Origin: Deltaproteobacteria bacterium
GTDB lineage: Bacteria > Desulfobacterota > Desulfobacteria > Desulfobacterales > SpSt-501
Direction of reading: 5' to 3'
Length of the DNA: 64,000 nucleotides
Assembly: GCA_016219005.1 (NCBI GenBank)
Contig: JACRCN010000084.1
Span: forward strand, 73,042 to 137,041
In this document: one piece after another, positions 25,891-43,708 of the stretch
How the letters are laid out: every line of letters begins with the position of its first letter
How positions within the stretch are numbered: position 1 is the first letter of the stretch
Notes under the pieces: generated by a model
Seen by the model: only the letters and a program-made list of their open reading frames with translations
What the model was told of the DNA's origin: nothing
Databases searched by the model: none
Translations under genes and position numbers: made by a program

Positions 25891-26343
25891 TCAAAGGCTT
25901 CGTTCCAAGTTAATGATTTTGGAGGGGCTGAATTGGTTCGCGCTAAAGAAATGAATCAGTTTGGTATCATTCCAGTCGACCAAGGTGTTGATTTTTTGAA
26001 CGCCGAGTGTTCTCAAATGATCCATAAATTCATTGATCAACTGCTTACCGATACCCTTATGCTGGCAATAGGGATCGACGCCGATGGTATCCAGTGTTGC
26101 TTTTTCCTTGGAAATACCATATTCTCCTATGTAGAGTTCCCCCATTACAAAACCCACCACCGTGCCATCTTGGTCCTCGGCCACCAGCGACGCGGGCAAA
26201 TAATCTTTGGTTTGAAAAAGCTTTTCAAACTTCAGCTCATAGTACTCCGGCCGGGGCGTTTTAAGCACTTTCTCGTCAATCCCAACCACAGCGTCAAAAT
26301 CGCCGGCCTTCATGAGTCTGATTTTAATGGCGCTCTCGTTCAT
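25891..26343 (-). CDS. GNAT-family N-acetyltransferase
   Basis: 'VGFVMGE' and the 'QHKGIGKQLI' acetyl-CoA-binding motif. Its ATG overlaps the upstream stop (ATGA at 26340-26343). Confidence 0.8.
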   Translation of the reverse strand: MNESAIKIRLMKAGDFDAVVGIDEKVLKTPRPEYYELKFEKLFQTKDYLPASLVAEDQDGTVVGFVMGELYIGEYGISKEKATLDTIGVDPYCQHKGIGKQLINEFMDHLRTLGVQKINTLVDWNDTKLIHFFSANQFSPSKIINLERSL

Positions 26344-27185
26344 GAAGCTCCTTTCTCTTTACTCTTTCTGATGATGGTTCTTTCTGCTTCAGGAAGAGGA
26401 GGCGGAACAGGCTCGCCGGAAATCGTCTTCACCGCACCAAAGCGAGGGGGGCAGGCATCAAAGCAAGTTCCGCATTTTATGCATTTTTCCTGGTCAATTA
26501 CATGGATCCGGTTTTTGCCGCCCGCAATTGCCTCTACCGGGCATTTTTTAAGGCAAATCATACAGGCCTGGCACTTTTCCGGATCAATATGGTACGAGAT
26601 TACTTCACGAAATAACCGGTCTACCTCCTCACGGGTGAAAAGACCGTCATATTCTGCCTTGTTTTCAAGGCGTGACTCCAGCTTCTCCCTTTTAACTATC
26701 TTGATGTAGGGGGTGAGCTTTGCAACTTCTTGAATTTTAGACTTTAATTCATTTTTATCTATTCCTTCGCTTTTGCCAAGCGGTCCTAACTCCTTCACCT
26801 TTCGGCCAAAATCATTAATAACGTCGGCAAAGAGGATTCCTTCGCCGCCCGACATAAATTCAATCCTTAACCGTTCTGGGTTCAACCCTATGTGCTCCAA
26901 TATTTTTTTACCTAGAAGCACCATGTTAAGTGCATGATAATTTCCATGAGTAATATAATTGCATTCCTTTAAACGGCAACCACCAATAAACACCCCGTCC
27001 ATCCCATTTGAGAAAGCCCGGAGCACGAAGGACAGGTCGACTCTACCGGAACACATGACACGAACAAGCCTGATTTCAGGCGGATATTGCAGTCTGGAAA
27101 CTCCAGCCAGGTCAGCCGCGCCGTAGGCTCACCAATGGCATACAAAACCTATCATTTTGGGTCTGAATACAAGTCCTGCACTCAT
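26340..27185 (-). CDS. bamF: BamF-like MvhD-domain protein fused to a 2x[4Fe-4S] ferredoxin; predicted selenoprotein (in-frame TGA at 27129-27131)
   Basis: Reading from the ATG at 27185 (GGTGA ribosome-binding site upstream) gives 'MSAGLVFRPKMIGFVCHW-TGA-AYGAADLAGVSRLQYPPEIRLVRVMCSGRVD...', in frame with the 26340..27056 ORF. This matches the MvhD 'CxWC-SYxGAD' N-terminus with the second Cys replaced by TGA. C-terminal motifs are 'CQACMICLKKCP' and 'CIKCGTCFDACP'. Confidence 0.8.
27094..27106 (-). other. Hairpin downstream of the bamF-like TGA (bacterial SECIS candidate)
   Basis: On the minus-strand RNA, CUGGA-GUU-UCCAG starts 22 nt after the UGA. Only the core stem is reported; the extended structure was not resolved by eye. 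Confidence 0.35.
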
Positions 27186-27237
27186 TCGTTCTCACCTTCG
27201 TCTTTTAGAAATCCCGGGTTTATTCATGCGTATACTT

Positions 27238-30200
27238 CTACACATCCCCAAGCGCTGCATCAATTTGGCTCAAGAGCTCTGCATCGGTGAAATGCTTTAG
27301 GGTAATAGCGCCTGTCGGGCACCGTGCATTACAGAGACCATCTCCTTTGCAGATGACAGGATTAACTACTGCTTTTTTGCCCTGTCGTGTCTCGCGAAAC
27401 TCTATGGCATCATACGTACAGGCGGATATACATGCCCCGCACCCCGTACACTTTTTCTGATCCACTTCGCAAACAGAACCGGAGGCGATGACCGTATCGT
27501 GTGAGAGAAGCGTTAAGACCCGGCCGGCCGCTCCATACGCCTGGCTGATCGCTTCCGGCATATGCTTGGGATATTGAGCCATTCCACAAAGATAAACGCC
27601 GTCTGCCGCAAACTCCACCGGTTTCAATTTGACATGGGCTTCTTTGAAAAAATCATCCGGTCCCAAAGAGACCTTGAATAATCCTGCTACTTCCTTGGCT
27701 CCCGCGGAAGGAATAACGGCGGCAGCCAGGGCGAGGCAATCGGCATCTATCGCAAGCTTCTTGCCCAAAATATAATCGGTCACGGCAATCCTCAGGCGAG
27801 ACGTGCCACCCTCCTTAACGGTCTCCACCAGAGGCTTATCCAGCGGATCATAGCGGATGAACTTCACCTCCCTATTCGACGCTTCCCGGTAATAATCCTC
27901 ACTGAACCCATATGTCATCATGTCCCGATAGAGGATGTAGATATCCATCAGGGGATTTATCTCTTTCAGTTTCAATGCGTTCTTTATCGACACGCTGCAA
28001 CAGATCCTGCTGCAGTAATTTCTGTCTTCATTTCTGCAGCCTACGCATTGGATCATCACGAGACTTTCTGCGCTAATTATCTTTTCGTCTCCTTTGCTGA
28101 TCCGCTCCTCCAACTCAAGGTGGGTTATTACCCGGTCATCTTCCCCATATAGGTATTCGGTGGGCTTATATATATCAGCACCTATAGCAATGACGGCGGC
28201 ACCATGTTTTATCTCTTCGACCCCTCTTTCAGAATTCACCTTGGTTACGAAATTCCCAACATAACCCGTAGCCTCCGTGATGGTGGCATCCGTATATACA
28301 TGTACGGAGGGGTGTCGATATACTTTTTCTACAAGATCACGCAAATACGCCTGAACATCACGCCCATCCAGGGTGTAATGAATTCTGCGTGCCATTCCCC
28401 CCAGGTCCTTATTCTTTTCCACCAGGAAAACCTCGTGTCCCTGGTTGGCAATGGAAAGAGCACACGTCATGCCGGATACACCGCCACCCACCACTAACGC
28501 CGTCTTGTTTACGGGTAGGTCCAATTCCTGCAATGGCTCCAAATGGCACGCGCGTGCCACCGACATCCGGATTATATCCTTTGCCTTCTGTGTGGCTTCT
28601 TCCTTTTCTTTAGAATGGACCCAGGAGTTATGTTCCCTTATATTGGCCATTTCGAAGTAATACTGATTGATTCCCGCCTCCCGAAGGGTGTCCCGGAATA
28701 ACGGTTCAAGGGTCCTGGGGCTGCAGGCAGCGACTATCACCCGATTGAGCCCTTTTTCCTTTATAATGTCCGTTATTTCTTTGGCACAATTTGAAGCGCA
28801 TGAAAACAGCTGTTCCTGAGCGTAGACAACATGGGGTAAGGTCAAGGCATATTCAACTGTGGAAGGAACACTTACGACTCTTCCGATATTCGCCCCGCAA
28901 TGGCACACAAAGACCCCTATCCGGGGTTCTTCCCTGGAGACATCCTTCTCCGGCGGATAAATCCTTTCCTGGGTCAGCTTCCCTCGCCGGTAGTCAAGGA
29001 GTTCACCACATTGGGAGCCGGCTCCGCTGGCGGTAAAAACCGACTCGGGAATATCGGTGGGACCCTGGAAGGCCCCGCTTACAAAGATCCCGGGCCGGGT
29101 GGTCGAAAGGGGATTGGAAGGAATTGCTTTACAGAATCCGTGTGAATTGAGCTCGATTCCGAACTTATCCGCCAGATCCTCATAATCCGCAGGTGGATTC
29201 AATCCAACGGATAATACCACAAGATCGAATTCTTCCTCCTTTACCCCGTCCTCGGTCGTAGCGTATCGTATCGTTACATTCTTGCTTTCCTGGATCTCTT
29301 TCCCGATTGAGACATAGCTTCTTATAAATCGGACCCCGGGAAGGTTCTCCGCTCTTTGGTAAAAGCGTTCGAAATCTTTTCCGTAGGAACGAATATCGTT
29401 ATGGAATATGGTACACTCCGCCCCGGCGTCATGATCCTTTGTCAAAATCACCTGTTTCTGGGTATAAGTGCAGCATACGGCTGAGCAATAGCTGTTATCG
29501 CCCGGGGTAACCCGTCTGGAACCGACGCATTGAATCCAGGCTGTTTTATGGGGATGCTTTTTGTCGGAAGGGCGCAGGATCTCACCTTCGTATGGCCCGG
29601 TGGAGCATAACAGTCGTTCATAGTCCATACTGGTGACCACGTTCTGCATCTTCCCGTAGCCATAGTCGCCCTTCACCCCAGGGTCAAATGGCTCAAGCCC
29701 GGGAGACAGAATTATCGAAGCAACCTTAATTTCTATCTTCTCCGGCTTTTGCTGAAAATCAATGGCATCATTTTTACAGACGCCTTCGCAGATACGACAC
29801 TTCTTCTCTTTAAGGTAGAGACAGCTTTCATCGATATATGCGACAAGGGGAATCGCTTGGGAGTAGTATATATGGACGGCTTTATTTTTCGATATTTCCT
29901 GATTAAAAGAATCAGGGTATTTGACGGGGCAGTATTCTACACATGTAGTACAACCCGTGCATTTGTCTTCTAAAATGTATCGGGGTTTTTTAAGCAGGGT
30001 TACCTTGAAGTCCCCTGCCTCTCCTTCGACACTGTCGATTTCAGTTAACGTCAGGATCTCTACATTGGGATGCCGGCCGACCTCGACCAGTTTGGGCGAG
30101 AGTATTCACATGGAACAGTCGTTGGTTGGAAAGGTCTTGTCAAGCTGCGCCATATGGCCGCCGATGGCTGGTGCTTTCTCAACCAGGTAAACCTTGAAAC

Positions 30201-30336
30201 CGGCAATGGCAAGATCGAGGGAGGCCTGAATACCGGAAATTCCTCCACCCACCACCATTACATCCCCAAAATTAGTATTCACAAGACCTTTACAAAACAG
30301 TTGAACTTTTTCTTCAAGCAACAGTTCTTTTTGCAC
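27238..30336 (-). CDS. bamE: BamE-like double HdrA-type flavoprotein/FeS protein (about 1030 codons); predicted selenoprotein (in-frame TGA at 30106-30108)
   Basis: I translated 30336 to 29676 by hand. It reads '...[16 protein letters not shown]...[33 protein letters not shown]...[12 protein letters not shown]...[11 protein letters not shown]...' with no other stop and runs into the 27238..29676 ORF in the same frame. There are two FAD GxGxxG sites, the HdrA motifs 'CSAVCC' and 'CSRICC', and a C-terminal 2x[4Fe-4S]. The GTG start has a GAGGTGA ribosome-binding site. Confidence 0.85.
30073..30090 (-). other. Hairpin downstream of the bamE-like TGA (bacterial SECIS candidate)
   Basis: On the minus-strand RNA, CUGGUC-GAGGUC-GGCCGG forms a 6-bp stem (including G-U pairs) starting 15 nt after the UGA. 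The loop contains GGUC, reminiscent of the E. coli fdhF SECIS apical loop. Confidence 0.45.
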
Positions 30337-30404: not shown

Positions 30405-31556
30405 CTAAATAACTTCCTGTATGATCTCGGTGATGTCCTTAATTTCTATTTTATCGGCAACACCAATGGTTGACCTGCTATCCTCGAAATTGGCGATGCA
30501 ATAAGGGCAGGAAGTAACCAGCACCTCGGCTCCGACACCGATCGCCTGTTCCAACCTCAAATCGGAGAATCTTTCACCCTTTGGAGTTTCCATCCAAATC
30601 CGGCCGCCTCCCCCTCCGCAACAGAGGCTATCACTGCGCGATTCTGGCATCTCAATCAGTTCCAGACCAGGTACCTTCTTCAAGACCTCCCGGGGTTCGT
30701 CATATATGCCGTTGTGCCGACCCAGGTAACATGGGTCGTGATAAGTAACTTTCTTCCGATACGCCTTGTTAAGCTCAAGCCTTCCTGCATTCATGAGCTG
30801 GAATAAATATTGCGCGATATGAACCACCTCAAAGTCCACCCTAAATTCGGGATACTCGTTCTTGAAGCTATGGTAGCAATGAGGGGAAGAAACAAGGATT
30901 TTTTTCACCCCATTATCGATAAACGCTTTGATATTTTCCTTGGCCAAGCGTTTGAATAAATCCTCATCGCCGGTCTTGCGGATGCTCTCTCCGCAGCAAT
31001 TCTCCTTGGATCCCAGTATGCCGTAATGAACAGCCGCTCGGTTAAGAATAGTGGCGGTAGCCGCCGCCGCCTTTTTCAATCTTGGGTCATAGCTGGGGTA
31101 GCAGCAGGGGAAATATAATATTTCGGTGCCCTCGGCGAAGGTTTTTACAGAAAGACCTTCAGCCCAATTTGACCTATTATTGCGCTCTTCATTCAGAGGG
31201 TTACCGCGGCCACGGAGGCTCGCGCTCACGGTGCGGATAGGTCGAACCGGACCCGGGAAAACCCCGTATTCCGTGGCAAGCTTGCGTAAGGCTACCCCGG
31301 ATTCGATCTGTTTTACGTCCCGGGGGCATTGCTGAGGGCATCTTCCGCAGGTCGTACAACGCCAAATATCTTCACTTTCTATATCCGTCAAACCGAACGC
31401 AGCTTCGCGGACTATCTTGCGCATGCTGAAGATTCTAATCCTATTCCATGGGCAAACCACATCGCATAAGCCGCATTGAAAGCACGATTTGAAGGCTTCT
31501 CCACCTTTGGCTTTGATGGCATCTACGATCTCTTTAAAATCAGCTACATTCTCCAC
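30405..31556 (-). CDS. bamD: BamD-like HdrD-type FeS protein (2x[4Fe-4S] plus two CCG domains)
   Basis: 'CFQCGLCDVVCP', 'CTTCGRCPQQCP'; CCG-domain motifs 'PCCY', 'CCGES', 'DPCYLGR', 'CCGGGGG'. Confidence 0.8.
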   Translation of the reverse strand: MENVADFKEIVDAIKAKGGEAFKSCFQCGLCDVVCPWNRIRIFSMRKIVREAAFGLTDIESEDIWRCTTCGRCPQQCPRDVKQIESGVALRKLATEYGVFPGPVRPIRTVSASLRGRGNPLNEERNNRSNWAEGLSVKTFAEGTEILYFPCCYPSYDPRLKKAAAATATILNRAAVHYGILGSKENCCGESIRKTGDEDLFKRLAKENIKAFIDNGVKKILVSSPHCYHSFKNEYPEFRVDFEVVHIAQYLFQLMNAGRLELNKAYRKKVTYHDPCYLGRHNGIYDEPREVLKKVPGLELIEMPESRSDSLCCGGGGGRIWMETPKGERFSDLRLEQAIGVGAEVLVTSCPYCIANFEDSRSTIGVADKIEIKDITEIIQEVI

Positions 31557-31591
31557 GGTCGTTCTTAACCCTCTATTTTCGACGGATGGTT

Positions 31592-32140
31592 TTAGCCCTT
31601 CTTGGAGATTGACATCCGGGCGACGGTTTCCATTATCTTGTCAAGTCCAAATTTGTTTACCAACGATTCCAATCCTGTCTTCAACTCTTCTGCGTTCGCT
31701 TCTTCTTCTACTTCCTCTTCTCTTTCTTCGTAGATCAGGGCATCCGTTATGCACCACTGAACGCACAAGGGCTCTGATAAAGGCGGATCGCTTAAACACA
31801 TATCGCATTTTAGCGGCAGACCGGAATCGGGCTCCTTGAAAAGATCCCTGGATGGGCAGGAAGCCCTGCAGAAGGCACACTCTTCGTATTCCTTTCCGTC
31901 AATCGTGTACTTGTCTCGGCCCATGCATTCGGCTTTAGCATACTCACCCGCATATACAGGAACATATATGTCTTTTAACGGTTCATGAATAACACGAATA
32001 CGAGACCTCGCTGGATTGTTGCTGCTGTATTTCGGCGCAGCGTGGAAGGCGGAGCAGGCTAGCTCACATGCCCGGCAACCGTTGCATTTATCAACATCAA
32101 CTTTTATTGATTTAACAATTTTCTTTTTTTTCTCACCCAT
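31592..32140 (-). CDS. bamC: BamC-like polyferredoxin subunit
   Basis: 'CNGCRACELAC', 'CAFCRASCP', 'CDMC...CVQWC'. Size and position directly after the AOR-like gene fit. Confidence 0.75.
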   Translation of the reverse strand: MGEKKKKIVKSIKVDVDKCNGCRACELACSAFHAAPKYSSNNPARSRIRVIHEPLKDIYVPVYAGEYAKAECMGRDKYTIDGKEYEECAFCRASCPSRDLFKEPDSGLPLKCDMCLSDPPLSEPLCVQWCITDALIYEEREEEVEEEANAEELKTGLESLVNKFGLDKIMETVARMSISKKG

Positions 32141-32161
32141 GATAGTTAGCGCCTCTTCACT

Positions 32162-34165
32162 TTAATTCTCTCTGCTTCCGCTGAAGTCTTTGGCGGGCTC
32201 GTCTTGACTATCCGCCAAGATCCCCCGCTTAACAAAGTCTTCGATCACGTAATCCAAACCAAGATCATGCAAGGATTCCTTAGTAGGAATACCCTGATGA
32301 TTCCACCCCTTGAATTTGTAATACGCATCCAGGAGCTCTTTTTCAAGGTCGGGAAATCTTTTCTTCCAATGGTTCACTGGAGGCTTATCATCTTTTCTCC
32401 GCATGCCTCTTCTTATATTAATGGCCCTAACTAAAGTTCGGTACCTTTTGACTGCTTGCGTCAGTTTAGCTTCATCCATATCGATCCCGGCACCGGATGA
32501 GATAAATTGCGGGAAATTGTGCATATGATATGGAGGCTTCAGAGGAAATGATGACAAACCGGCGCACATCCCGAGGGCGTCATCGATATAGTGCATCCGC
32601 TCCTGCCAGTCGACAATGTTACAACTCATTTCAACCGTCGGATAATAGGGGATCGATTTTTCTCCGCGTGGTTCCCAGTCCAAGAAATATTGCTTAAACT
32701 TTTCATCAGGAACCTGGACCCAATCCTTTACAAACGCTTCTCTCTCTTCTCTGGTAGCAAAAGGCGCCTGGGGGAACTGGCCTTCGATTTGGGTAATGTT
32801 TATCTTCTCACCGGTGGAATACATAAGAAAATAAATTGGATTCAGCATGGATAGCTTGAGAGGCAGCTGCTCATGTTTTTTGATGTTATTATGAGCATAT
32901 GCTTCTGCGCCCTTACCAATCTGTTGGGCCGCCCAATAGGTGCCTTTGGCTAAAACATCCCCTATCCCTTCACGCCGAACAATTCTGTCAAGTAACCAAT
33001 AAAATTTCCCCTCGTTATCGGACGGCATTCCCGACATGTCATCGTCAGTTAAAATGGCGGCTTCGTAGAGCTCAAGGGCGAAGGCCATAACTTGCGGGGT
33101 TGAGTATGCGTCCACTCCATACTCCGTAGCACGTTGAGCGATTTTTAAGCCAAAATCCAAATCAGACATGGCCGCCATTGTATAAGTAAGTTTCGAGAAG
33201 CATTTCATCATGTAGGTTGGAAGCCCTGGGACGGAAAGGGTTGCCCCGCATTTCATCGGACAGTTATAGCAGCTGATTAGCCGCGTCCGCGCGCTTTCCA
33301 TGGTCCCCGTCCACTTCTTTTCGACTTCCTCGTTCCAAAAATCTTTTCTGCGAATGCGGGAATTTCCCCACATGAAATTCTCGGTATGCCACTTCTCATC
33401 ATGCACTTTCATCTCTTGCGGTGACCCCAGCCCAGCTAAAATGGGCATTACCCCCGGAATTGGGTTTTTTTCGCGGTGTTTTATGTATTTCAGCACTTCG
33501 TTGCAAAGCTCCATGAATGCATCCGGTCGGGCAATATGGACATCTTTTGTTCCACGAACGACTATGGCCTTTAACCCTTTGTCTCCCATTACGGCGCCTA
33601 TTCCGCCTCGGCTGGCGCTGGACCGGCCCTGCTCGATGGAAGCAAAATAAACCCTGTTTTCACCGGCCAAACCGATAGCCGCCACCTGGGCTTTCGGCTC
33701 CTTCAACTCCTGTCGGATGAGTTCCGCAGTTTCAACAGCGCCTTTACCCCGCAAATGCGAGGCGTCACGTAATTCTACCTTGTCGTTGTTTATCCACAGA
33801 TAAACCAGACTGGCGGACTTGCCGCGAAGGATCACTTTGTCGTAACCGGCATACTTCAATTCCGGTGCCCAAAATCCACCCATCATTGAAAATGCCATTA
33901 ACAACGTCTGAGGCGAAATGGTGGAAACAATGGTACGATTACAACCGGTAGCCGGTGTACCGCATAAAAGACCGGCGCTGAATATGAGTAGATTATCGGG
34001 AGAAAAAGGTTCAACTTCAGGAGGAACCCTGTCCCACAATATCTTGGCGTTAGTGCCTAGCCCCCCCAGATAAAGTTCGGTATCCCTTGGGTCGGTTGCG
34101 ACCCTCTCAATGTTTCCTCGGGATAGGTCAACTTCTAAATTAAACCCTGTCTCTGCGTACCTCAA
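32162..34165 (-). CDS. bamB: BamB-like tungsten/molybdopterin aldehyde:ferredoxin-oxidoreductase-family subunit (class II benzoyl-CoA reductase active-site subunit or close paralogue)
   Basis: The N-terminus 'MRYAETGFNLEVDLSRGNIERVATDPRDTELYLGGLGTNAKILWDRVPPEV' matches my recollection of Geobacter BamB closely. The AOR-family length is 667 aa. The TTG start at 34165 has a GGAGAAAG ribosome-binding site. Confidence 0.8.
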   Translation of the reverse strand: MRYAETGFNLEVDLSRGNIERVATDPRDTELYLGGLGTNAKILWDRVPPEVEPFSPDNLLIFSAGLLCGTPATGCNRTIVSTISPQTLLMAFSMMGGFWAPELKYAGYDKVILRGKSASLVYLWINNDKVELRDASHLRGKGAVETAELIRQELKEPKAQVAAIGLAGENRVYFASIEQGRSSASRGGIGAVMGDKGLKAIVVRGTKDVHIARPDAFMELCNEVLKYIKHREKNPIPGVMPILAGLGSPQEMKVHDEKWHTENFMWGNSRIRRKDFWNEEVEKKWTGTMESARTRLISCYNCPMKCGATLSVPGLPTYMMKCFSKLTYTMAAMSDLDFGLKIAQRATEYGVDAYSTPQVMAFALELYEAAILTDDDMSGMPSDNEGKFYWLLDRIVRREGIGDVLAKGTYWAAQQIGKGAEAYAHNNIKKHEQLPLKLSMLNPIYFLMYSTGEKINITQIEGQFPQAPFATREEREAFVKDWVQVPDEKFKQYFLDWEPRGEKSIPYYPTVEMSCNIVDWQERMHYIDDALGMCAGLSSFPLKPPYHMHNFPQFISSGAGIDMDEAKLTQAVKRYRTLVRAINIRRGMRRKDDKPPVNHWKKRFPDLEKELLDAYYKFKGWNHQGIPTKESLHDLGLDYVIEDFVKRGILADSQDEPAKDFSGSREN

Positions 34166-34290: not shown

Positions 34291-34329
34291 CTATAAATTA
34301 ACTATAAAATAGCTATATTGTATTTATAG
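34291..34329. promoter_or_regulatory. AT-rich nested palindrome / operator-like element at the predicted bamB transcription start
   Basis: Outer arms are CTATAAA (34291-34297) and TTTATAG (34323-34329). The central perfect palindrome is ATAGCTAT (34309-34316). Confidence 0.35.
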
Positions 34330-34351
34330 GAGGTTCCTCGGATTTTGTCAA
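34323..34351 (-). promoter_or_regulatory. Sigma-70-type promoter candidate for the bamB-like operon
   Basis: On the minus strand: TTGACA (34351-34346), a 17-nt spacer, then TATAAA (34328-34323). It lies about 150 nt upstream of the bamB-like start. Confidence 0.5.
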
Positions 34352-34618
34352 GAAAAAAACTCATCGGAGGGGAATTGCGGAATTCAGGAATCGACGGCTC
34401 TGGATCAGCGCCAGTTCCGCTATCGAAGGCGACGAACTTCCGTATGGCAGGTGAAATGTGGTGGCCAAATCGGCTGTAAGCGGAAGCCGACTGCGGGGGC
34501 GCATGCCTACCGCTTATGGCCAGAGCCTGAGAAAGGACCTCGCAGCCTCTGCCCTCCAGCCTGCGGCGAATCGCAACCGCCTTCCAAGCCGCACCAGCAG
34601 ACGGGGTTTTATAACAGC

Positions 34619-34960
34619 CTATTTGGCCCGGCTGCGGGCATAGGTCAGCCCGCCGGTCACCTCGATCGTGGTCGCGTTGATGGCATCGTTTTCGATGCAG
34701 TGCATGATGCTGGCCGCGATCTCCTCGGGTTCCACCAGTCTTCCGCTGTGGACGTCCTTCAGGATGGCCGCGAGCGCTTCCGGGTTCATGCCTCTCAGGA
34801 TCGCCGTGTTGACATAGCCCGGCGCGATCGCCACCACCCGGATGTTGCGGATCTTGCGGATCACGAACTCGCCCACCAGGATCTTCGGCATCAGGGCCAC
34901 GGCCGCCTTGGTGGCGCTGTAGTTGAGCTGGCCGACCTGGCCCTCCTTGTTGATGGAGGA
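34619..34960 (-). pseudogene. 3' remnant of a short-chain dehydrogenase/reductase (SDR) gene
   Basis: The open frame '..SSINKEGQVGQLNYSATKAAVALMPKIL...IRVVAIAPGYVNT...' contains the SDR YxxxK catalytic motif and the C-terminal half only. An in-frame TGA at 34961-34963 stops it, and no Rossmann TGxxxGxG region lies upstream. The fragment is high-GC, unlike its surroundings. Confidence 0.65.
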
Positions 34961-34986
34961 TCAGCATGGCCTCCGTAAGCAGCCAT

Positions 34987-35024
34987 AAAAAAGGGGAGAG
35001 CAGGTCTTATTTCCGCTCTCCCCC
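34987..35024 (-). terminator. Rho-independent terminator ending the TRAP/CoA-transferase operon
   Basis: On the minus strand: GGGGAGAGC, a 13-nt loop, GCTCTCCCC, then TTTTTT (the A-run at 34987-34992 on plus). Confidence 0.75.
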
Positions 35025-35081
35025 GGGTTCCAAAACATGACAGGGATGTTCACCATGGCAGCAATTACTCTGATCTATTTT

Positions 35082-35216
35082 TCATTTGTGCTTTTGGATC
35101 AGCTCGATATACACCCCGTTCAGCTCTCTTTGTTCGATCACCGCAATCTTTGTACCTCTCGACCCATCGACGATCTTGCCCCATACGAATTCCATGTGAA
35201 AGGATTCAGCGGCCAT
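35082..35216 (-). pseudogene. Possible 3' remnant of a methylmalonyl-CoA-epimerase/VOC-family gene
   Basis: The tail 'FHMEFVWGKIVDGSRGTKIAVIEQRELNGVYIELIQKHK' resembles VOC/epimerase C-termini ('..G.KIAF.....GV.IEL..'). The upstream part of the frame overlaps dctM and is not VOC-like. Confidence 0.3.
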
Positions 35217-36531
35217 ACATGCTGGCCGGTATGACGGTTGAAATCCACGGGAAAGCAAAGAGAATGGCAATGCCGAAAGCCTCGAAGAGCAAAAACCAGA
35301 AACAACCCCTGAAGATCTCGTGCATGGGTACATCCCGGACGACACCGGCTAAGACATAGACATTGAGCCCCACCGGCGGCGTCATCAGCCCGACTTCAGC
35401 CATCTTGACGCACAGGACCCCGAACCAGATGGGATCGTAACCCAGCTGGGTGGTGACGATCGGAAACATGATGGGTTGGGTGATGATGAGCATTGAGAAA
35501 GTATCCATGAACATTCCCAGGGGTATATAGACGATCAAGAAACCCGTCACGATCATCCAGGGCGATACCGGCAGACCGCCCACCCAACCCGATATGACTT
35601 GGGGAACCTGGGCCAGGGTAAGAAACTTGGCGTAGAGTCCGGCGCCGATCAGGATCATGAAAACCATGCAGCTCGTGCGGAGGGTGTCGAAGAAACAGAG
35701 CTTGATGTTTCCCCCCATCATCCCCTTCTCCACTCGCCCCCCGAACAGCATCATCAGCAACGCGACAAAAGCGCCCACGGAAGCGGCTTCGGTAGGGGTG
35801 AACCAGCCGATGTACATGCCCCCGATCACCAGGAAGAACAAAAGGGCCATTCCCCAAACCCCTTTGAGGGAAGCAAACCGCTCCCGCCAGGTGTAGTTCT
35901 CCGGCGCGGGACACAGGTTGGGATAGATCCGGGTCAGGAAGAAAAGCCCAATGACGTAAACAAATACGCTCAACACCCCGGGCAGGATCCCGGCGATGAG
36001 TTGCGCGCCGGCCGAGACATCGTTGATCGATGCATAAAAAACGGAGACAACGCTCGGCGGGATCAGAATGGCCAGGGTCCCGGAAGCGGCCACGATGCCG
36101 CAGGCCAGTTTCCGATCGTACCCCAAGGCTCGCATTTCGGGGATGGCAATCGCCCCCATGGTAGCGGCGGAGGCAACGCTCGATCCGCAGCAGGCGCCAA
36201 ATCCCGCCGAAGCGATGAAGGTGGCGATGCCGAGCCCGCCCGGGAGTTTGGAAAACCACTTCCGGCCGATGGTGTAAAGATCGCTGCTGATGCCGGCTTT
36301 GAATCCGAAATGCCCCATAATGATAAAAAGCGGCACCACGGCTAAGAGGTAATTGGCCGTATTCGCGTAAGGAGAGACCTTCAATACGGTCAGGGCATAG
36401 TAGGGGCCTTTCAAGGCAAGGATACCCAGAACACCAGTGATACCCAGAGAGGCATAAATCGGCATCCCCATCCACATCAGAGCCAGCACCAAAAAGACGC
36501 TGAGAATAGACGCAGTTCCGGGTTCGATCAT
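35206..36531 (-). CDS. dctM: TRAP transporter large permease (DctM family)
   Basis: A polytopic membrane protein of typical DctM sequence. The start was moved to the ATG at 36531, preceded by GGAGG. Confidence 0.88.
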   Translation of the reverse strand: MIEPGTASILSVFLVLALMWMGMPIYASLGITGVLGILALKGPYYALTVLKVSPYANTANYLLAVVPLFIIMGHFGFKAGISSDLYTIGRKWFSKLPGGLGIATFIASAGFGACCGSSVASAATMGAIAIPEMRALGYDRKLACGIVAASGTLAILIPPSVVSVFYASINDVSAGAQLIAGILPGVLSVFVYVIGLFFLTRIYPNLCPAPENYTWRERFASLKGVWGMALLFFLVIGGMYIGWFTPTEAASVGAFVALLMMLFGGRVEKGMMGGNIKLCFFDTLRTSCMVFMILIGAGLYAKFLTLAQVPQVISGWVGGLPVSPWMIVTGFLIVYIPLGMFMDTFSMLIITQPIMFPIVTTQLGYDPIWFGVLCVKMAEVGLMTPPVGLNVYVLAGVVRDVPMHEIFRGCFWFLLFEAFGIAILFAFPWISTVIPASMYGR

Positions 36532-36593
36532 CTTATTCCCTCCATAAACAGTCAGATGTTGGACCAATCATCTCGAACCGATAGGGATACCGC

Positions 36594-37124
36594 TCAATCA
36601 CCGATCTGACGCAGGTCGGGCAGATCGAGAGGTAATGCCCCCATGAGCCGGCGGAAGTTCACCCAAATGTCGACCACCAACTGGAGGCAGGTCAGCCAGC
36701 ACCCCAGGGGGACGAGAGCTTTGGCCCACCAGATCTGCATTTGCACCGAACCCCAGCGGAATTCGTTGATTTCATAAGACCGAAGAGCTTCCCTGGCGCT
36801 TTGCCATCCCATGACAGCCAGAAAAATAAAACAGAGGACCCAGCAGAGCGTATCCAGTTTGATCGCGCTGCGGATTGAAAACCTTCTCAGCCCCAGGACA
36901 ACCCGCGTGTGTCCTCTGGCCTCTTGGGTCCAGCTGAGGGTCATAAACACGGCGATGACCAACAGTACCTCATTGAACTCGAAGACCCCGGCAATAGGAT
37001 AATTGAAAACGTAACGACTGGTAGTATCCAGGGTGGTGCTTATCATCATCATGGCGATCGCGGCCGCAGCAATGAAGCTGAAGAATATATTGATTTTATT
37101 GAGCCAGCGCGCAAGGTTCTCCAT
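36594..37124 (-). CDS. dctQ: TRAP transporter small permease (DctQ family)
   Basis: A 4-TM protein of about 176 aa between the dctP-like and dctM-like genes. Confidence 0.8.
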   Translation of the reverse strand: MENLARWLNKINIFFSFIAAAAIAMMMISTTLDTTSRYVFNYPIAGVFEFNEVLLVIAVFMTLSWTQEARGHTRVVLGLRRFSIRSAIKLDTLCWVLCFIFLAVMGWQSAREALRSYEINEFRWGSVQMQIWWAKALVPLGCWLTCLQLVVDIWVNFRRLMGALPLDLPDLRQIGD

Positions 37125-37204
37125 CTCGCAATATACCTCCCCTTGGGAAGGCAGCCGGAACGAATTAGGACATCCGCCCGGCTACCTTCATAGCACCATC
37201 GTTT

Positions 37205-38338
37205 TTACTTTTTTTCGTACTTCGCCTGATAGATTTCATAGGGATTTTTGAGCTTGCCCTGCGGCTCATACTTGGCGATGAGGCTGCGTGCTTTATCGAT
37301 GAATTCGACCCCATTGTACTTCGCTGGCTTGGCGACCTTTTCGGCCCAGTCGTTCACCTGCGCCGGCTGCACCATGCTGGTGGCCTTTTTGATCTCTTCA
37401 TCCGACCACTTTGTGAATTTGGCACCGTTCTTGACCATGACATCGAGGCTTTCTTCCAGAAGCTTGTTGTACAACTCGACATACTTGTATTTGTAAACGT
37501 CATCCGCGGTTTTTTTAAATACATCCTTCAGGTCGTCGGGCAGGGAATTCCACACGTCCAGGCCCATGACCACCGTGGTGGGCGCATGGGCCCCGGCGCC
37601 GACTTCGATAATGTTGGGAGCCTGCTCATAGAGCTTCGCTTTTTCGGCCGTGACAAAGCAAAACGCGAAGACTCCGTCGAGAATCCCGCGCTCCAACGAC
37701 TGATAGACTTCCGCGGCCACCACGGGCATTCCCCTTCCTCCCAGGCGGTCGATGGTTTCAGCACCAATTCCGTAGCCTCGGATTCTCATCCCCTTGAGTT
37801 CGGAGACTTGAGTGAGGGGCTTTTTGGAAAAAAGCGGGCAATAATCCCAGTTGGTGAAATACAGGACTTTGCAGCCGTTTCTTTTTTCCCACTCATCCTT
37901 CAGAGGGGGATAGGTATCGTACATTTCCTGGCAGACCTTCAGCAGGGTGTCGGCGTGGTTGCAGCCCATGAAGTACCACTCCAATCCTCGGCTGAGCGGC
38001 ACCTGGGCAGGATAATAGCCGTAAGAAATCAGGGATAATTCTGAAAGCCCGTCCCTGACCGCCTGCAAATGTTCTCCCACTTTGTGAAGGGAGGATGCCC
38101 AATATTTTTCGATTTTGATCCGGCCGCCGGATCGTTCCACCACTGTGTCGAGATACCAGTTGTCAAGCTGGGCCGGGGCCGCTGACGCTTGGATGTAGCA
38201 GTCGTACTTCATGGTAATGACTTTGCCCGACTGCGGTGCGGCGTGCAAGATGCCCCGGGCCGGGCCCATGAGGAGTCCCCCCATGGCGGCTGCAGCGGTT
38301 GATTTCAGAAATGTCCTTCGATCCATTCCCTTGCCCAT
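37205..38338 (-). CDS. dctP: TRAP transporter substrate-binding protein (DctP family)
   Basis: Twin-arginine-like signal 'MDRRTFLKSTAAAAMGG' and DctP-like length and sequence. Confidence 0.85.
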   Translation of the reverse strand: MGKGMDRRTFLKSTAAAAMGGLLMGPARGILHAAPQSGKVITMKYDCYIQASAAPAQLDNWYLDTVVERSGGRIKIEKYWASSLHKVGEHLQAVRDGLSELSLISYGYYPAQVPLSRGLEWYFMGCNHADTLLKVCQEMYDTYPPLKDEWEKRNGCKVLYFTNWDYCPLFSKKPLTQVSELKGMRIRGYGIGAETIDRLGGRGMPVVAAEVYQSLERGILDGVFAFCFVTAEKAKLYEQAPNIIEVGAGAHAPTTVVMGLDVWNSLPDDLKDVFKKTADDVYKYKYVELYNKLLEESLDVMVKNGAKFTKWSDEEIKKATSMVQPAQVNDWAEKVAKPAKYNGVEFIDKARSLIAKYEPQGKLKNPYEIYQAKYEKK

Positions 38339-38397
38339 GTTTCATTCCTCCTTCCTTGGGTTAAAGGCTCAGTGAAGCCCAGTCCAATTTCCCGAAA

Positions 38398-38811
38398 TCA
38401 GGGTTTAAAAACCAAAGAGGTCTGCCGCGCATGCCCCTCCCCCTTGGAAGCAAAATCAGCTTGGAGCGGCATTCCCACCCGGATCTGATCGGGGTTCCTT
38501 GCATCCACGCCTGTGATCCGCGACACGGCCTTGACACCTTCGTCCAATTCCACCACACCGACAACGTATGGATTGTTCCGGCCGAAGCCTTCCCGGGCCA
38601 TCGCCGGCGGGGCCACCACGATGCTGGTGAAGCCCGCCAGCTTGCCCTTACCTTTCAATTCCACCCATTCCAGATCGCTGCCATGGCACGAAACGCAGAT
38701 GGGTCGTGGCGGCAGCGCGAGTGCGCTGCACTTTTTACAGCGCGAGCCCATGATCCGGCGGTCGTTGAGATACTGCTCGTAGGAGGCGTCATTAAAAGGC
38801 CTTTTCTCCAT
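38398..38811 (-). CDS. Zn-ribbon/OB-fold protein (DUF35 family), thiolase partner
   Basis: 'CKKCSALALPPRPICVSC' zinc ribbon followed by an OB fold. The ATG at 38811 has a GGAGAGGAGG ribosome-binding site. It directly follows the thiolase-like gene. Confidence 0.8.
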   Translation of the reverse strand: MEKRPFNDASYEQYLNDRRIMGSRCKKCSALALPPRPICVSCHGSDLEWVELKGKGKLAGFTSIVVAPPAMAREGFGRNNPYVVGVVELDEGVKAVSRITGVDARNPDQIRVGMPLQADFASKGEGHARQTSLVFKP

Positions 38812-38815
38812 GATG

Positions 38816-40081
38816 TTACCTCCTCTCCAGAATGGTGAAGGTGCAGGTCCCGCCGGTTCCCCCGAGGTTATGCGCCGCGCCGATGCGCAGGTTGGGGTTG
38901 GGGACCTGTCTATTGCCGGCCTGGCCCCGCAACTGGGTCCAGACCTCGTAGAGTTGGGCAACCCCTGTTGCACCCACGGGATGGCCTTTCGATTTGAGGC
39001 CTCCTGAAGTATTGATGGGCCTGGGGCCGTCGAGGCGGGTCATCCCGTCGGCCACGGCTCTGTGGGCTTGCCCCGGTTTAACAAAACCCAGATCCTCCAT
39101 GGTCACGAGTTCGGCGATGGAGAAGCAGTCGTGGACCTCTGAAAACTGTATGTCGTTCGGGGTCAGGCCGGACATTTCATAGGCCGCGTTGCCTGCCGCA
39201 CGGGTGGCCTCATAGCTTGTGAGATCTTTTTTGGCATGGAGGCTGTAACCGCTGCCCTGGCCCAATCCGGCCACGTGGATCGGCACATCCGTGAAGTTGC
39301 GAGCCATGTCTTCGGCTACCAGGAGCATGCAGGCCGCTCCGTCGCTGATGGGACAGCAGTCAAAGAGATGCATGGGCCAGGCTACCGGCGGGTTCGCCGC
39401 AGGGTCCGCAAGATAGGCCTTCTCGTCCTTCCAGGCGGGGACGGGCTCTGCCTTTTTCTTGGACCTTTCGATCCGGGCGTTCATGAAATCCCGGACGGTC
39501 ATTGGAAACTGGGCCTTGGGGTTAAGCGGGGCGTTATTGTGGCTTTTGATGGTCACGTTAAAAAGCGCTTCCCGGGTGGCCCCGTACTTGGCGAAATAGG
39601 CGGTCGCCATCGTCCCGAAAACCCCGGGGAAGGTGAATCCCGCCGCCACTTCGTACGGACTCGCCGCCATCGCTAATCCCTCGGCCACTTCTTCGGTCGA
39701 ACATTTTGACATCTGCTCGAAGCCGCCTACCAGCACGATGTCATACATTCCCGAGGCGATGGCCAGCACCCCTTCCCGGAACGCCAGGGCGCTGGACGCG
39801 CAGGCGCCTTCCGTGCGGGTGACGGGCTTGGGCACGTTCCCCAGCAGATCGGCTATGATCGGGGCCCAGTGGGATTGTTTCACAAAAAAATCATTGGTAA
39901 AGTTTCCGACATAGACCGCATCGATATCTTTCGGGTCGATGCCCTTGTCCACGGAGTTGACCATTTCCGTGTAGGCTTCGGCAAAGAAATCCTTGCAGTT
40001 GCGGTCTTTGAAAAGGCCCAACTTGGTCAGTCCGCCGCCGACAACCGCAACTCCCCGGGCCAACTTTCGTTTTCTTGCCAT
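38816..40081 (-). CDS. Thiolase-superfamily protein (SCP-x/BbsB-like non-canonical thiolase)
   Basis: 'RGVAVVGGGLTKLG', active-site 'EGACASSALAF', C-terminal 'HNLGGTGG'. The start was moved to the ATG at 40081, preceded by AGGAGG. Confidence 0.85.
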   Translation of the reverse strand: MARKRKLARGVAVVGGGLTKLGLFKDRNCKDFFAEAYTEMVNSVDKGIDPKDIDAVYVGNFTNDFFVKQSHWAPIIADLLGNVPKPVTRTEGACASSALAFREGVLAIASGMYDIVLVGGFEQMSKCSTEEVAEGLAMAASPYEVAAGFTFPGVFGTMATAYFAKYGATREALFNVTIKSHNNAPLNPKAQFPMTVRDFMNARIERSKKKAEPVPAWKDEKAYLADPAANPPVAWPMHLFDCCPISDGAACMLLVAEDMARNFTDVPIHVAGLGQGSGYSLHAKKDLTSYEATRAAGNAAYEMSGLTPNDIQFSEVHDCFSIAELVTMEDLGFVKPGQAHRAVADGMTRLDGPRPINTSGGLKSKGHPVGATGVAQLYEVWTQLRGQAGNRQVPNPNLRIGAAHNLGGTGGTCTFTILERR

Positions 40082-40156
40082 CGGCTCCTCCTTAACTGCA
40101 CTATGAAAATGCCATGTGGAAGATAATAAGAGTGCTCGCAACTGTTTCCGGTCGGC

Positions 40157-40936
40157 TCATCCCTTGCGGATAATATATCCATCCGGATCAACCTCTTTCC
40201 GAAGGACGTCAAGTTCTTTTTCGGTCGGAGGCGGGGTCGCGACAATATTCTTGGCCTTGAGCAGGGGGAACCCACAATTTTTCTGCACATCCTCGAAGGT
40301 GAAGCCGTGGTGGATGGATTCCACCTGCATGCGCTTGGTCTCCTCATCGTACCCCAGAATGGCCATGTTGGTAATCACTTTATGGGGGCCGCTCTCTTCC
40401 GGCAAACCGGCTTTCTCGCGTGCTCCCGGCCCGTCCAGATAGCCAGGGGAGGTGATGAAGCTGACCTTCTCGACGAAACGCCGGGCATCCTGCGGAGTGA
40501 TCACCAGAATCCTCCAGCAGAAGGAGGCAAAATCGTTGGCACCTCCTGATCCGGGCAGGCGCGCTTTAGGCTTTTCCCAATCCCCGATAACCGTGGAGTT
40601 GAGATTGCCATACATGTCGATTTGGGCCCCCCCGAGAAATGTGTAATCCACCATTCCCCGCTGGCAGCTCTCCATGATATCGCACATGCCGCTGGCCATG
40701 ACACTCCTGTAATAGGACCGAGAGTCTCCCACGGATATGGGCATTTTGCAGAGCACGGGAGCGATTCCCCCGGCCTCAAACATGATGACGAGATCCGGGG
40801 CATGCATCTTATGGGCAAGCATCGAGGCGGCCAGTGGCGCCCCCGTGCCAACCCCTACGGTGGCTCCGTTTTCCAGAATGCGGGAAGCCGCTATCACCAT
40901 CAGTTCCATCGTATTGAATTCAGGCATGGCATTCAC
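40157..40936 (-). CDS. Family I CoA-transferase subunit B (glutaconate CoA-transferase beta-like)
   Basis: 'VGVGTGAPLAA', 'FEAGGI', 'GGAQIDMYGN'. It overlaps the subunit A stop. Confidence 0.8.
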   Translation of the reverse strand: MNAMPEFNTMELMVIAASRILENGATVGVGTGAPLAASMLAHKMHAPDLVIMFEAGGIAPVLCKMPISVGDSRSYYRSVMASGMCDIMESCQRGMVDYTFLGGAQIDMYGNLNSTVIGDWEKPKARLPGSGGANDFASFCWRILVITPQDARRFVEKVSFITSPGYLDGPGAREKAGLPEESGPHKVITNMAILGYDEETKRMQVESIHHGFTFEDVQKNCGFPLLKAKNIVATPPPTEKELDVLRKEVDPDGYIIRKG

Positions 40937-41933
40937 TCCTTTTTGTTCTCAAATCGATCATGTGCTCTTCGGCACGGAGTTGATTGATACGTTTGATGCC
41001 GCCGCAGAGTTCCAGGTACCCCTCGAAGTCCTGCACTCCATAGATGTATTGATCCATGAACTTTTTGAAAGACGCAGGCTCCTTCTCGCTTTCCAACCAG
41101 AGCTTTAGTTGCTCTTCGTCGGAAAAGTACTCATCCACCATGTTTCCCGGGTAGGCGCCGAAGGGGACTTCGCAAACGGCATCGACCAGGAAGTAAGGAA
41201 TCTGGGTGGCTGACGGATCGCGACGGATCTCATCGTTGTGGATCAACCGTTCGCAGGTGATGATCAGCCGCTTGGAAGCCCGGGCCAATTCCAAATCGCA
41301 GACCGATATTCCCTTGAATCGGGCGTTGCCGTAAATGTCCGCCTCGTGAACGTGGATGACCGACACGTCCGGCCATACGGCCGGGTACAGGCAGTAAAGC
41401 TTTCCGGTAAATGGGCACCGGGCGACCTTGGCGGCGCTTCGTTTGAACGTATCCGTCCCCATGACATTGCGCCCCGGAAGGTACGACACGCCCATCGCTG
41501 CCGCCTTCAACCGGAGGGCCAGGGCGTAATTGGTCCATTCACAGAACTGCACCTTTCCGCTCTCGGAGTAACGGCGGGCATTGGGGGAGAGCCCGCGAAT
41601 CTCAACGCCGATGATGTAGGCGATGTCGCAGCGATTGAAGGTTTCTCCCGCAGCCAGAATCTGGTAATCGTGGGTGGAGGTGTGGCCGAAGAAAGCCAGA
41701 TTTTTTCTTCTTTGCCGGACGATTTCGTGGCACGCAGCCACCGGCGTACGGTTGGCGCCGAATCCGCCGATGCACAGATAATCTCCGTCATGAACGAATT
41801 GGGCGATGGCGTCTTTCAGGGGTATCACCTTGTTAGCAAGGGCTCTCTTTTTCTTACGGAAGAATGCTCGCGCCTTGTCAGCGTCCGGGTCCATGAAAAG
41901 AGGCCCTTCACCTTGAGCGATGACTTCATACAT
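40920..41933 (-). CDS. Family I CoA-transferase subunit A (glutaconate CoA-transferase alpha-like)
   Basis: A 337-aa protein with 'GDYLCIGGFG', paired with subunit B. An AAGGAGG ribosome-binding site lies upstream. Confidence 0.8.
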   Translation of the reverse strand: MYEVIAQGEGPLFMDPDADKARAFFRKKKRALANKVIPLKDAIAQFVHDGDYLCIGGFGANRTPVAACHEIVRQRRKNLAFFGHTSTHDYQILAAGETFNRCDIAYIIGVEIRGLSPNARRYSESGKVQFCEWTNYALALRLKAAAMGVSYLPGRNVMGTDTFKRSAAKVARCPFTGKLYCLYPAVWPDVSVIHVHEADIYGNARFKGISVCDLELARASKRLIITCERLIHNDEIRRDPSATQIPYFLVDAVCEVPFGAYPGNMVDEYFSDEEQLKLWLESEKEPASFKKFMDQYIYGVQDFEGYLELCGGIKRINQLRAEEHMIDLRTKRSECHA

Positions 41934-42132
41934 AAAAAAACCTCCTTTGTTGATGTTGCCAGCGGGTGGACAATAGGATCGCTTTTTTTCGGGGTGCCGG
42001 GAGCGGCTGGGTGCGGGGCATCATCTTGGCAGTTGCTCCTTGCTCAGCAGGAGGAGATATCCGCAGTTCGGTCTGCTTCGGACCGTCTTGCCCCTTGCAG
42101 GAGCCAAGGGGGATGGTTAAACCGGTCACTGG

Positions 42133-42148
42133 AGCAATTGGCGTGCCA
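42133..42148 (-). promoter_or_regulatory. Sigma-54 (-24/-12) promoter for the CoA-transferase/thiolase/TRAP operon
   Basis: The minus strand reads TTGGCACGCCAATTGCT, a near-perfect match to YTGGCACGrNNNTTGCW, about 200 nt upstream of the CoA-transferase A start. Confidence 0.75.
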
Positions 42149-42212
42149 ATCCCATGGAAATCATGGCCGTAACAAAACGAGATGAATTATCAATACATTT
42201 CCGCATTCGAAA

Positions 42213-42227
42213 GGTTTTCCGAAAACC
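42213..42227. promoter_or_regulatory. Inverted repeat GGTTTTC-C-GAAAACC upstream of the sigma-54 promoter
   Basis: Perfect 7-bp arms read directly, about 70 nt upstream of the -24 element. Confidence 0.35.
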
Positions 42228-42253
42228 GAAGGGTGCTAAAAAATGCATGGGGG

Positions 42254-42290
42254 TTTTGCAGGCTTGCGAAACATTCGCAGGTTTGCAAAA
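42254..42290. promoter_or_regulatory. Candidate enhancer (UAS) palindrome for the adjacent sigma-54 activator
   Basis: TTTTGCAGGCTTGCGAA-ACA-TTCGCAGGTTTGCAAAA has a perfect core TGCGAA-ACA-TTCGCA and matching outer TTTTGCA/TGCAAAA arms. It lies about 110-140 nt upstream of the -24 element. Confidence 0.45.
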
Positions 42291-42331
42291 AAACGTCCGG
42301 GGGAAAAACAACGCTGCGGAAAGGAACCGGG

Positions 42332-43708
42332 TCACTTGGAAAGGGCGTGCTGCTTCAACTTTCGGTAAAGGGTCGCCGGGTGAACCTGGGCAAAATGGGA
42401 GGCGTCTTCAAAATTTCTGGAAAACTTGCGCAAAAGATTTTCTAGATATTTCCTTTCGAAGATCTCCTTGGCCTTCTCGTAGGATAAATCCATGAAGTCG
42501 CATTCTTCATCCGAGCGCAGAATGGTGAGATGCTCTTGGATGTCTATTTCGGTAATGACATCCGCCCCGTGCAGGGCCACAATTCTCTCGATCACGTTCT
42601 GAAGTTCTCTCACGTTGCCTGGCCAATCATGGTTCATCAGGACTTGCAGGGCTTTGGGATCAAAGGTCTTTTTGCCCTTATTCATGCGGGAACAATAATT
42701 TTCTACAAAATGGTCGGTGAGCAGGGCAATGTCATCCCGCCGGTCTTTGAGCAGGGGAAGATCGATTTTAATCACATTGATCCGGTAAAACAGGTCCTTG
42801 CGGAACCGCCGCTTGACCACCTCCTCCTTGAGATCTTTATTGGTGGCCATAATCATGCGCACATCCATTGGATAGGACTTCGTTCCTCCCACCCGGACCA
42901 CTTCTCTTTCCTGCAGGGCCCGGAGCAGGCGGATCTGCAGGGAAGAGCTGGCCTCGCCAATTTCGTCCAGGAAGAGAGTCCCCCCGTCAGCCTCCTCGAA
43001 ATATCCCTTGGTGGTCTTCGTTGCCCCGGTGAAGGCTCCCCTTTCATAACCGAAAAGTGTGGATTCTAGAAGACTTTCAGGCAAGGCCCCGCAATTAACA
43101 GTTAGGAATCCATATTTTTTACGTCCGCTGTTTGAGTGAATGGCTCGGGCCACCAATTCTTTGCCTGTGCCGCTCTCACCCTGTATGAGAACATTGCTTT
43201 CAACTTCGGAGGCCTTTTTGATGAACTCGAAAACTCTCTTCATACCGGCGCTTCGGCCGATGATTTGCGGGAACAGGCCTTCCGTCTTGATCTGTTGCCT
43301 GAGCGAAAGGTTTTCTTTTTCGAGTTGCCCCTGGTAGATCGCGTTTTTGATCGTGATCAGCACCTTGCCGGTCTCTTCAAAAGGCTTCATTAAAAAATCG
43401 AAAGCCCCCAGTCTCATGGCACGGACCGCATCCTCCACGGTCCCGTATGCGGTTATCATGATGACCGGCATCAAAGGGTTCATTTCGCGGATTTGTTTGA
43501 GAATGTCGATCCCGTTTGCATCTGGAAGGCGGATATCGAGGATTACCAAAGAATAGGAGGCTTGTTGAAGGGCTTGCATCCCCTCGACGCCGCTGTCCAC
43601 TGTATGTATGTGAGCGACGGTTTTTTCAAGGAGCTTCCGGAAGAATTCCCGGGCAAAAGGTTCGTCGTCGATGACAAGGACTTTTTCTTCATTGCTATTG
43701 GTGCTCAA
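42332..43708 (-). CDS. Sigma-54-dependent response regulator (NtrC family: receiver, AAA+, Fis-type HTH)
   Basis: 'LVILDIRLPDANG', 'GESGTGKELVARAIH', 'GAFTGA', and a C-terminal HTH 'ATLYRKLKQH'. Confidence 0.92.
   Translation of the reverse strand: MSTNSNEEKVLVIDDEPFAREFFRKLLEKTVAHIHTVDSGVEGMQALQQASYSLVILDIRLPDANGIDILKQIREMNPLMPVIMITAYGTVEDAVRAMRLGAFDFLMKPFEETGKVLITIKNAIYQGQLEKENLSLRQQIKTEGLFPQIIGRSAGMKRVFEFIKKASEVESNVLIQGESGTGKELVARAIHSNSGRKKYGFLTVNCGALPESLLESTLFGYERGAFTGATKTTKGYFEEADGGTLFLDEIGEASSSLQIRLLRALQEREVVRVGGTKSYPMDVRMIMATNKDLKEEVVKRRFRKDLFYRINVIKIDLPLLKDRRDDIALLTDHFVENYCSRMNKGKKTFDPKALQVLMNHDWPGNVRELQNVIERIVALHGADVITEIDIQEHLTILRSDEECDFMDLSYEKAKEIFERKYLENLLRKFSRNFEDASHFAQVHPATLYRKLKQHALSK

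Follow-up and report, generated by a model that had tools for sequence, protein, structure and literature searches.

Two protein families, MvhD/VhuD (PF02662, with the motif CxxU) and HdrA (CxxU), are established prokaryotic selenoproteins according to a 2026 review. The closest described counterpart of the gene treated here is BamF of Geobacter metallireducens (Gmet_2083), a subunit of the benzoyl-CoA reductase complex Bam[(BC)2DEFGHI]2. In a 2026 cryo-EM preprint, this protein was described as an MvhD-like adaptor harboring the F1 [2Fe-2S] cluster, and a selenocysteine residue, Sec19, was modelled beside the cluster. Sec19 is the counterpart of a regulatory cysteine residue in the MvhD proteins of methanogens, and a selenenylsulfide intermediate has been suggested. 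A further described case is Desulfococcus multivorans, one of the Desulfobacteraceae with a genome of the sulfate-reducer type, for which the genome paper reports a UGA codon and a SECIS element in mvhD, hdrA, and bamE, together with the genes selA, selB, and selD. The BamF protein of its bam cluster is not among the five Sec genes of that paper, and the likeness to the present locus, where bamE also has a UGA codon at the CxxC/U site, rests on the description given there.

The locus presented here is located in a 64-kb stretch of DNA (64,000 nucleotides; the window) from a metagenome-assembled genome of an uncultured deltaproteobacterium. With a probability of about 0.95, a gene on its minus strand is bamF, encoding the MvhD-like subunit of a class II, tungsten-containing, ATP-independent benzoyl-CoA reductase, and the in-frame TGA at 27131-27129 is a Sec codon. 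Sec at this position of BamF is already known from Geobacter, and the protein adds one more member to an established selenoprotein family. The current understanding is unchanged by this gene, and its value lies in the correction of an annotation, in a clean UGA-linked constraint on a SECIS-type hairpin, and in a ferredoxin-domain variant of BamF with a putative role.

The bam cluster of the window

In the window, bamF is located directly downstream of homologs of bamB, bamC, bamD, and bamE, all of which are encoded on the minus strand. The first three occupy positions 30405-34165 and encode an aldehyde-oxidoreductase-type protein (BamB-like, 32162-34165), a small Fe-S protein (BamC-like, 31592-32140), and an HdrD-like CCG protein (BamD-like, 30405-31556). 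They were assigned by Pfam matches, by matches to the structure 4Z3W, and by a gene order that is kept in related loci. The BamB homolog matches the crystallized BamB from G. metallireducens (4Z3W_A) with 1255 bits and a full-length identity of about 80%, and the BamC homolog matches 4Z3W_E with 268 bits. Because these upstream genes match the crystallized proteins, the five genes are assigned to a class II benzoyl-CoA reductase cluster, of which they form the bamBCDEF portion, and bamF is the last of them. For comparison, a sample of 80 related loci with one genome per species was compiled, and the order bamB-C-D-E followed by bamF is kept in almost all of these loci with sufficient flank.

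The gene immediately upstream of bamF (27238-30282, minus strand) encodes a BamE-like double HdrA protein of 1014 residues. The original prediction had pointed to two Sec codons in adjacent genes, and an in-frame TGA is indeed also present in this HdrA-like gene, at 30108-30106 on the minus strand in the context NDCSM-TGA-ILSPK. It is followed at 30090-30073 by a hairpin of its own (CUGGUCG-AGGU-CGGCCGG) with a stem of 7 bp and the loop AGGU, at a distance from the UGA similar to that in bamF. The site was found in about 50 related loci, and neither its TGA nor its hairpin varies among them. In the alignment with BamE from G. metallireducens, the TGA falls on Cys62 (TGC), so that the BamE protein of the window would carry Sec at a position at which the Geobacter protein has Cys, and at Cys62 of the Geobacter bamE gene no hairpin was found. 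According to the cryo-EM preprint, Cys62 is part of the redox-active Cys59-Cys62 disulfide of BamE.

Downstream of bamF, the gene content differs from the Geobacter cluster, in which bamF is followed by bamGHI. In the window, bamF is followed by a gene for a GNAT acetyltransferase (25891-26343, minus strand; identified by family match) and then by a gene for a WrbA-type NAD(P)H:quinone oxidoreductase. The stop codon of bamF and the start codon of the GNAT gene overlap in the sequence ATGA at 26343-26340 on the minus strand, suggesting that both genes are translationally coupled. About a dozen of the related loci likewise have bamF adjacent to a gene for a GNAT protein with 75-85% identity, and an N-acetyltransferase gene of this family, bamK, is also part of the Geobacter bam cluster. 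Genes for the NuoE/F/G-like subunits BamGHI were found neither in the 64-kb window nor in the flanks downstream of the sampled loci. In strain NaphS2, however, bamGHI are located at a separate locus, and their absence here is therefore no evidence that the organism lacks them.

Several further observations concern the surroundings of the cluster. In Desulfonema magnum (L073:11228-16552) and in another deltaproteobacterial genome (L053:11770-16016), bamF is followed by genes for the β- and α-subunits of an ETF and by a gene for an HdrD-like CCG/Fe-S protein of 670-710 amino acids. Upstream of bamB, the minus strand of the window encodes at 34302-45194, in the order of increasing coordinates, a 221-amino acid ORF without a family match and the TRAP transporter DctPQM. 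These are followed by a DUF35/OB-fold protein together with a thiolase-like protein, then by two CoA-transferase subunits, and finally by a sigma-54 response regulator and a PAS histidine kinase. Together, these genes look like a module for uptake, activation, and regulation in the metabolism of an aromatic or alicyclic acid.

Reading frame and in-frame TGA of bamF

The reading frame of bamF is opened on the minus strand by an ATG at 27185-27183, runs through the TGA at 27131-27129, which is codon 19, and is closed by a TGA stop codon at 26342-26340. The coding sequence thus comprises 281 codons (26340-27185), and its assignment is based on this frame, on the Pfam FlpD match described below, and on Fer4 domains. 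Upstream of the start codon lies a Shine-Dalgarno-like sequence, AAGGTGAG (27198-27191; initiation region 27183-27198), within which the motif GGTGA at 27196-27192 is placed 6 nt 5' of the ATG, and Met is found at this position in nearly all 80 orthologous loci. The translation reads MSAGLVFRPKMIGFVCHW over 18 sense codons, followed by the TGA and by AYGAADLAGVSRLQYPPEIRLVRV, which leads into MCSGRVD. The original prediction had already placed the opening of this frame upstream of MCSGRVD, at an ATG at 27185 preceded by a GGTGA ribosome-binding site, and all of these elements were confirmed. The mechanically generated ORF list, in contrast, begins the gene at Met44 (27056, MCSGRVD).

With residue 19 filled in, residues 12-134 (26784-27152, minus strand) match positions 2-123 of the 123 positions of the Pfam profile FlpD (PF02662) with an E-value of 2.5e-46 and 157 bits, compared with a cutoff of 22.3. 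[quoted passage not shown] The end-to-end match appears only if codon 19 is read through since profile positions 2-33 fall upstream of Met44, which bears out the earlier claim that the start in the ORF list lacks the N-terminus. The best solved relatives are the MvhD chains of Hdr-Mvh complexes from methanogens (5ODC chain D, E-value 2.5e-43, and other MvhD chains). In the MvhD chain sequence FCCNWCTYGGAD, a cysteine residue is located opposite the TGA of bamF, and Cys also occupies this column in four MvhD chains from the PDB, in 122 metagenomic Cys forms, and in a database protein designated P0027. The TGA thus takes the place of the second Cys of the MvhD CxxC motif, as had been predicted, resulting in the motif C16-H-W-U19. 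BamF shares with MvhD and VhuD, which are subunits of F420-non-reducing hydrogenase/heterodisulfide reductase complexes, the fold family and the conserved cysteine residues, and Sec corresponds to the second Cys of the motif CNWC. It differs from the methanogen MvhD proteins, which comprise about 130-140 amino acids, have no C-terminal extension, and pair with a hydrogenase.

Among the 120 closest database proteins, P0027 is the sole full-length entry and reads CNWCCYAGAD. In the other 119 cases, the protein was called with a truncated N-terminus, either as a product of 238 amino acids from MCSGRVD or as one of about 250-260 amino acids from a M[AS]GVSR start just 3' of the TGA. Gene callers have thus cut these BamF proteins at the UGA, and the CxxU motif beside the [2Fe-2S] cluster has been dropped. 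With the N-terminus restored, the BamF sequence is correct for an enzyme that has a key position in the anaerobic degradation of aromatic compounds. For the organism of the window itself, exact matches at NCBI were found for BamB (MBI5581053), BamC (MBI5581052), the GNAT protein (MBI5581048), and WrbA (MBI5581047). BamF, BamE, and BamD are left with the three accession numbers between MBI5581048 and MBI5581052, and the collection does not contain the truncated BamF of 238 amino acids. Judging from this accession numbering, the NCBI annotation may already have bamF and bamE with Sec in place.

The same arrangement of codons was found when the bam locus of G. metallireducens GS-15 was recovered via the BamB sequence. 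Its bamF gene (L201:16875-17642) follows directly after bamBCDE and reads MSTGRDHKPSVVGFLCTW-TGA-AYGAADLAGVSRLQY, with the TGA at codon 19 and the motif C-x-W-U-A-Y-G-A-A-D. The stretch GGCTGGAGTTTCCAGACTGCAATAT downstream of the TGA and the hairpin GGCUGGAGUUUCCAGACU are identical to those of the window, and the two proteins share 56% identity over residues 1-197, comprising the MvhD domain and a helical linker. The alignment with Sec and Cys forms of VhuD, MvhD, and BamF that had been recommended together with the prediction therefore supports it, as the BamF protein of G. metallireducens has its TGA at the same codon followed by the same hairpin. The comparison with BamF was also apt. Sec19 has been modelled in the Geobacter protein, in a structure that was described in a preprint and belongs to a species other than that of the window.

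In the sample of related loci, the TGA is found at exactly codon 19 of bamF, within FVCHW-TGA-AYGAAD, in all 80 cases. The names attached to these loci are those of Desulfobacterota, Bacillota (Desulfocucumis, Thermincola, Peptococcaceae), and Chloroflexota. In the codons flanking the TGA on either side, the amino acids are conserved whereas the synonymous sites vary, which indicates that the whole frame is translated. Translation of the whole frame bears on two other explanations of the TGA. As the window stems from a metagenome-assembled genome and a single-base change suffices to turn TGC or TGT into TGA, the codon could be an error of sequencing or assembly or a recent inactivating mutation in a pseudogene. 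The occurrence of the same TGA in all 80 independent assemblies as well as in the finished genome of G. metallireducens, the purifying selection on both flanks, and the conserved hairpin specific for TGA genes (see below) already refute this explanation and leave it with a probability next to nil. The original prediction had likewise regarded error or decay as an unlikely reason for two Sec codons in adjacent genes.

Alternatively, the TGA could be a real stop codon that ends a leader peptide of 18 residues, with the functional protein starting at Met44. This explanation agrees with nearly all database entries, which were called in this way or from the M[AS]GVSR start, but a 238-amino acid product would be devoid of the CxxC/U part of the MvhD domain. 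Residues 20-43 are kept as protein with varying synonymous sites, no ATG, GTG, or TTG is present between the TGA and Met44 in the window, and BamF of G. metallireducens was seen in full length with Sec19. A leader peptide with a restart at Met44 is thus excluded by translation of the whole frame and has to be regarded as very improbable.

Some bacteria insert Cys at UGA Sec codons under selenium limitation. A third explanation would be that a standard tRNA for Cys or Trp reads the UGA, or that the genetic code of the organism assigns an amino acid to TGA. In the window, however, TGA is the ordinary stop codon of 24 of the 45 Pfam-supported genes, including bamF itself, and a scan of the window for genes split by a single TGA revealed only the bamE site besides bamF. 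The organism therefore uses the standard genetic code. The two in-frame TGA codons are both located at known Sec positions and are both followed by hairpins, and the hairpin of bamF is linked to TGA and absent from homologs with TGC or TGT. Decoding by a standard tRNA consequently has very little probability compared with the insertion of Sec at codon 19.

The hairpin downstream of the UGA codon

A SECIS-type hairpin, GGCUGGA-GUU-UCCAG(A)CU, is located within the coding sequence of bamF at 27108-27091 on the minus strand. Its core stem and loop (27106-27094) consist of CUGGA (27106-27102), GUU (27101-27099), and UCCAG (27098-27094) and begin 22 nt after the TGA, at the position given in the original prediction. 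Additional G-C and G-U pairs beyond a bulged A can lengthen the stem to 27108-27091, and the stem thus begins 20-22 nt after the UGA. Its size amounts to 5-7 bp in the stem and 3 nt in the loop, and the apical GU is found at +31/+32 from the U of the UGA. Bacterial SECIS elements are characterized by their distance 3' of the UGA and by G-U in the apical loop, and the bamF hairpin shows both features. In archaeal VhuD, which contains two Sec residues, the SECIS element is located outside the coding region, whereas the hairpin of the window is of the bacterial type.

Folding of single sequences did not set the hairpin apart from chance, with z-scores of -0.14, -1.78, and +0.48 for three stretches. 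Thermodynamics alone was therefore dropped as evidence, and the case for the hairpin is a comparative one. RNAalifold and the counting of pairs revealed no covariation, as the five pairs do not vary, apart from being disrupted in 2 of 81 sequences. Rfam searches yielded neither a SECIS element nor any other family, with gathering thresholds over the whole window and with E<=10 over positions 27000-30200.

A clear signal was obtained when the codons of the hairpin were compared between genes with TGA and genes with a Cys codon. As a control, 122 Cys-form MvhD genes that encode the peptide AGVSR at the same distance were collected from metagenome contigs by a degenerate-pattern scan. The hairpin codons GCU GGA GUU UCC AGA, which encode A-G-V-S-R and are each 4- to 6-fold degenerate, show an entropy of 0-0.17 bits in the 81 TGA genes, in which most neighboring degenerate codons reach 0.5-2.3 bits. 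The same five codons have 1.9-2.5 bits in the Cys-form genes. Accordingly, the exact 15-mer GCUGGAGUUUCCAGA is present in 74 of the 81 Sec forms and in none of the 122 Cys forms, and 79 of the 81 Sec forms have all five pairs in register, compared with 5 of the 122 Cys forms. In the remaining two Sec forms, L007 and L047 from Bacillota, GGA GUU is replaced by GGC GUG; the closing A-U pair is thereby lost, while the G and the U are retained in a loop of 5 nt.

Since the codons are frozen in the Sec forms and free in the Cys forms encoding the same peptide, the constraint on the hairpin is tied to the presence of the UGA. This codon-level comparison shows selection on the RNA of the hairpin itself, beyond the encoded peptide, and such a UGA-linked nucleotide constraint is as expected of a SECIS element that would bind SelB. 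The structured element that had been predicted is thus kept in orthologs, with invariant synonymous sites, and is missing from Cys-form genes. The 15-nt hairpin linked to TGA could also be used as a simple marker of Sec-type bamF genes in metagenomes.

Proposed role of Sec19 and the ferredoxin domain of BamF

Based on these features, the following sequence of events is conceivable for the translation of bamF. As the ribosome reaches the UGA, the hairpin located 20-22 nt past this codon would recruit the complex of SelB, GTP, and Sec-tRNA(Sec). The UGA would then be read as Sec instead of stop, leading to the protein of 281 residues with the motif C16-x-x-U19 next to an MvhD-type [2Fe-2S] cluster. 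The genome is accordingly predicted to encode the Sec machinery; within the 64-kb window, selA, selB, selC, and selD were not found, and ARAGORN detected no tRNA and hence no tRNA-Sec.

By analogy to the enzyme from G. metallireducens, the selenol of Sec19 would be located on the electron path from the [2Fe-2S] cluster to the bifurcating FAD and to the redox-active Cys/Sec pair of BamE. There, it is probably active in thiol/selenol chemistry as a step between one-electron and two-electron chemistry. For the uncultured deltaproteobacterium, a need for selenium and tungsten in the reduction of benzoyl-CoA can thus be predicted.

The one distinctive trait of BamF in the window is its predicted C-terminus. 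At residues ~199-250 (26436-26591, minus strand), Fer4 family matches indicate a 2x[4Fe-4S] ferredoxin domain with the motifs CQACMICLKKCP and CIKCGTCFDACP, which has no counterpart in BamF from G. metallireducens. Beyond residue 197, there is no similarity between the two proteins, and that of the window is 26 residues longer. The Geobacter protein ends in a winged helix-turn-helix (HTH_5, L201:17460-17642), which docks BamI according to the cryo-EM preprint. Like the window, the 80 related loci encode the ferredoxin domain, although this sample was retrieved partly via a pattern inside that very domain and is therefore biased towards ferredoxin-type BamF proteins.

A speculative and rather unlikely interpretation of this difference would be that the ferredoxin-fused BamF proteins of the window and the 80 loci represent a distinct wiring of class II benzoyl-CoA reductases. 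The 2x[4Fe-4S] domain would then replace the helix-turn-helix that docks BamI, and ferredoxin or another donor might deliver electrons to BamDEF with no BamGHI arm involved. In such an enzyme, Sec19 of BamF and the Sec of BamE that aligns with Cys62 of the Geobacter protein would provide selenols at both redox-active chalcogen sites.

Near-identical bamBCDEF clusters were also encountered in metagenome-assembled genomes labelled as Hyphomicrobiales, Bathyarchaeota, and Acidobacteriota (L005, L011, and L072). These labels more likely reflect contamination during binning, or possibly horizontal transfer, than the true hosts of the clusters.
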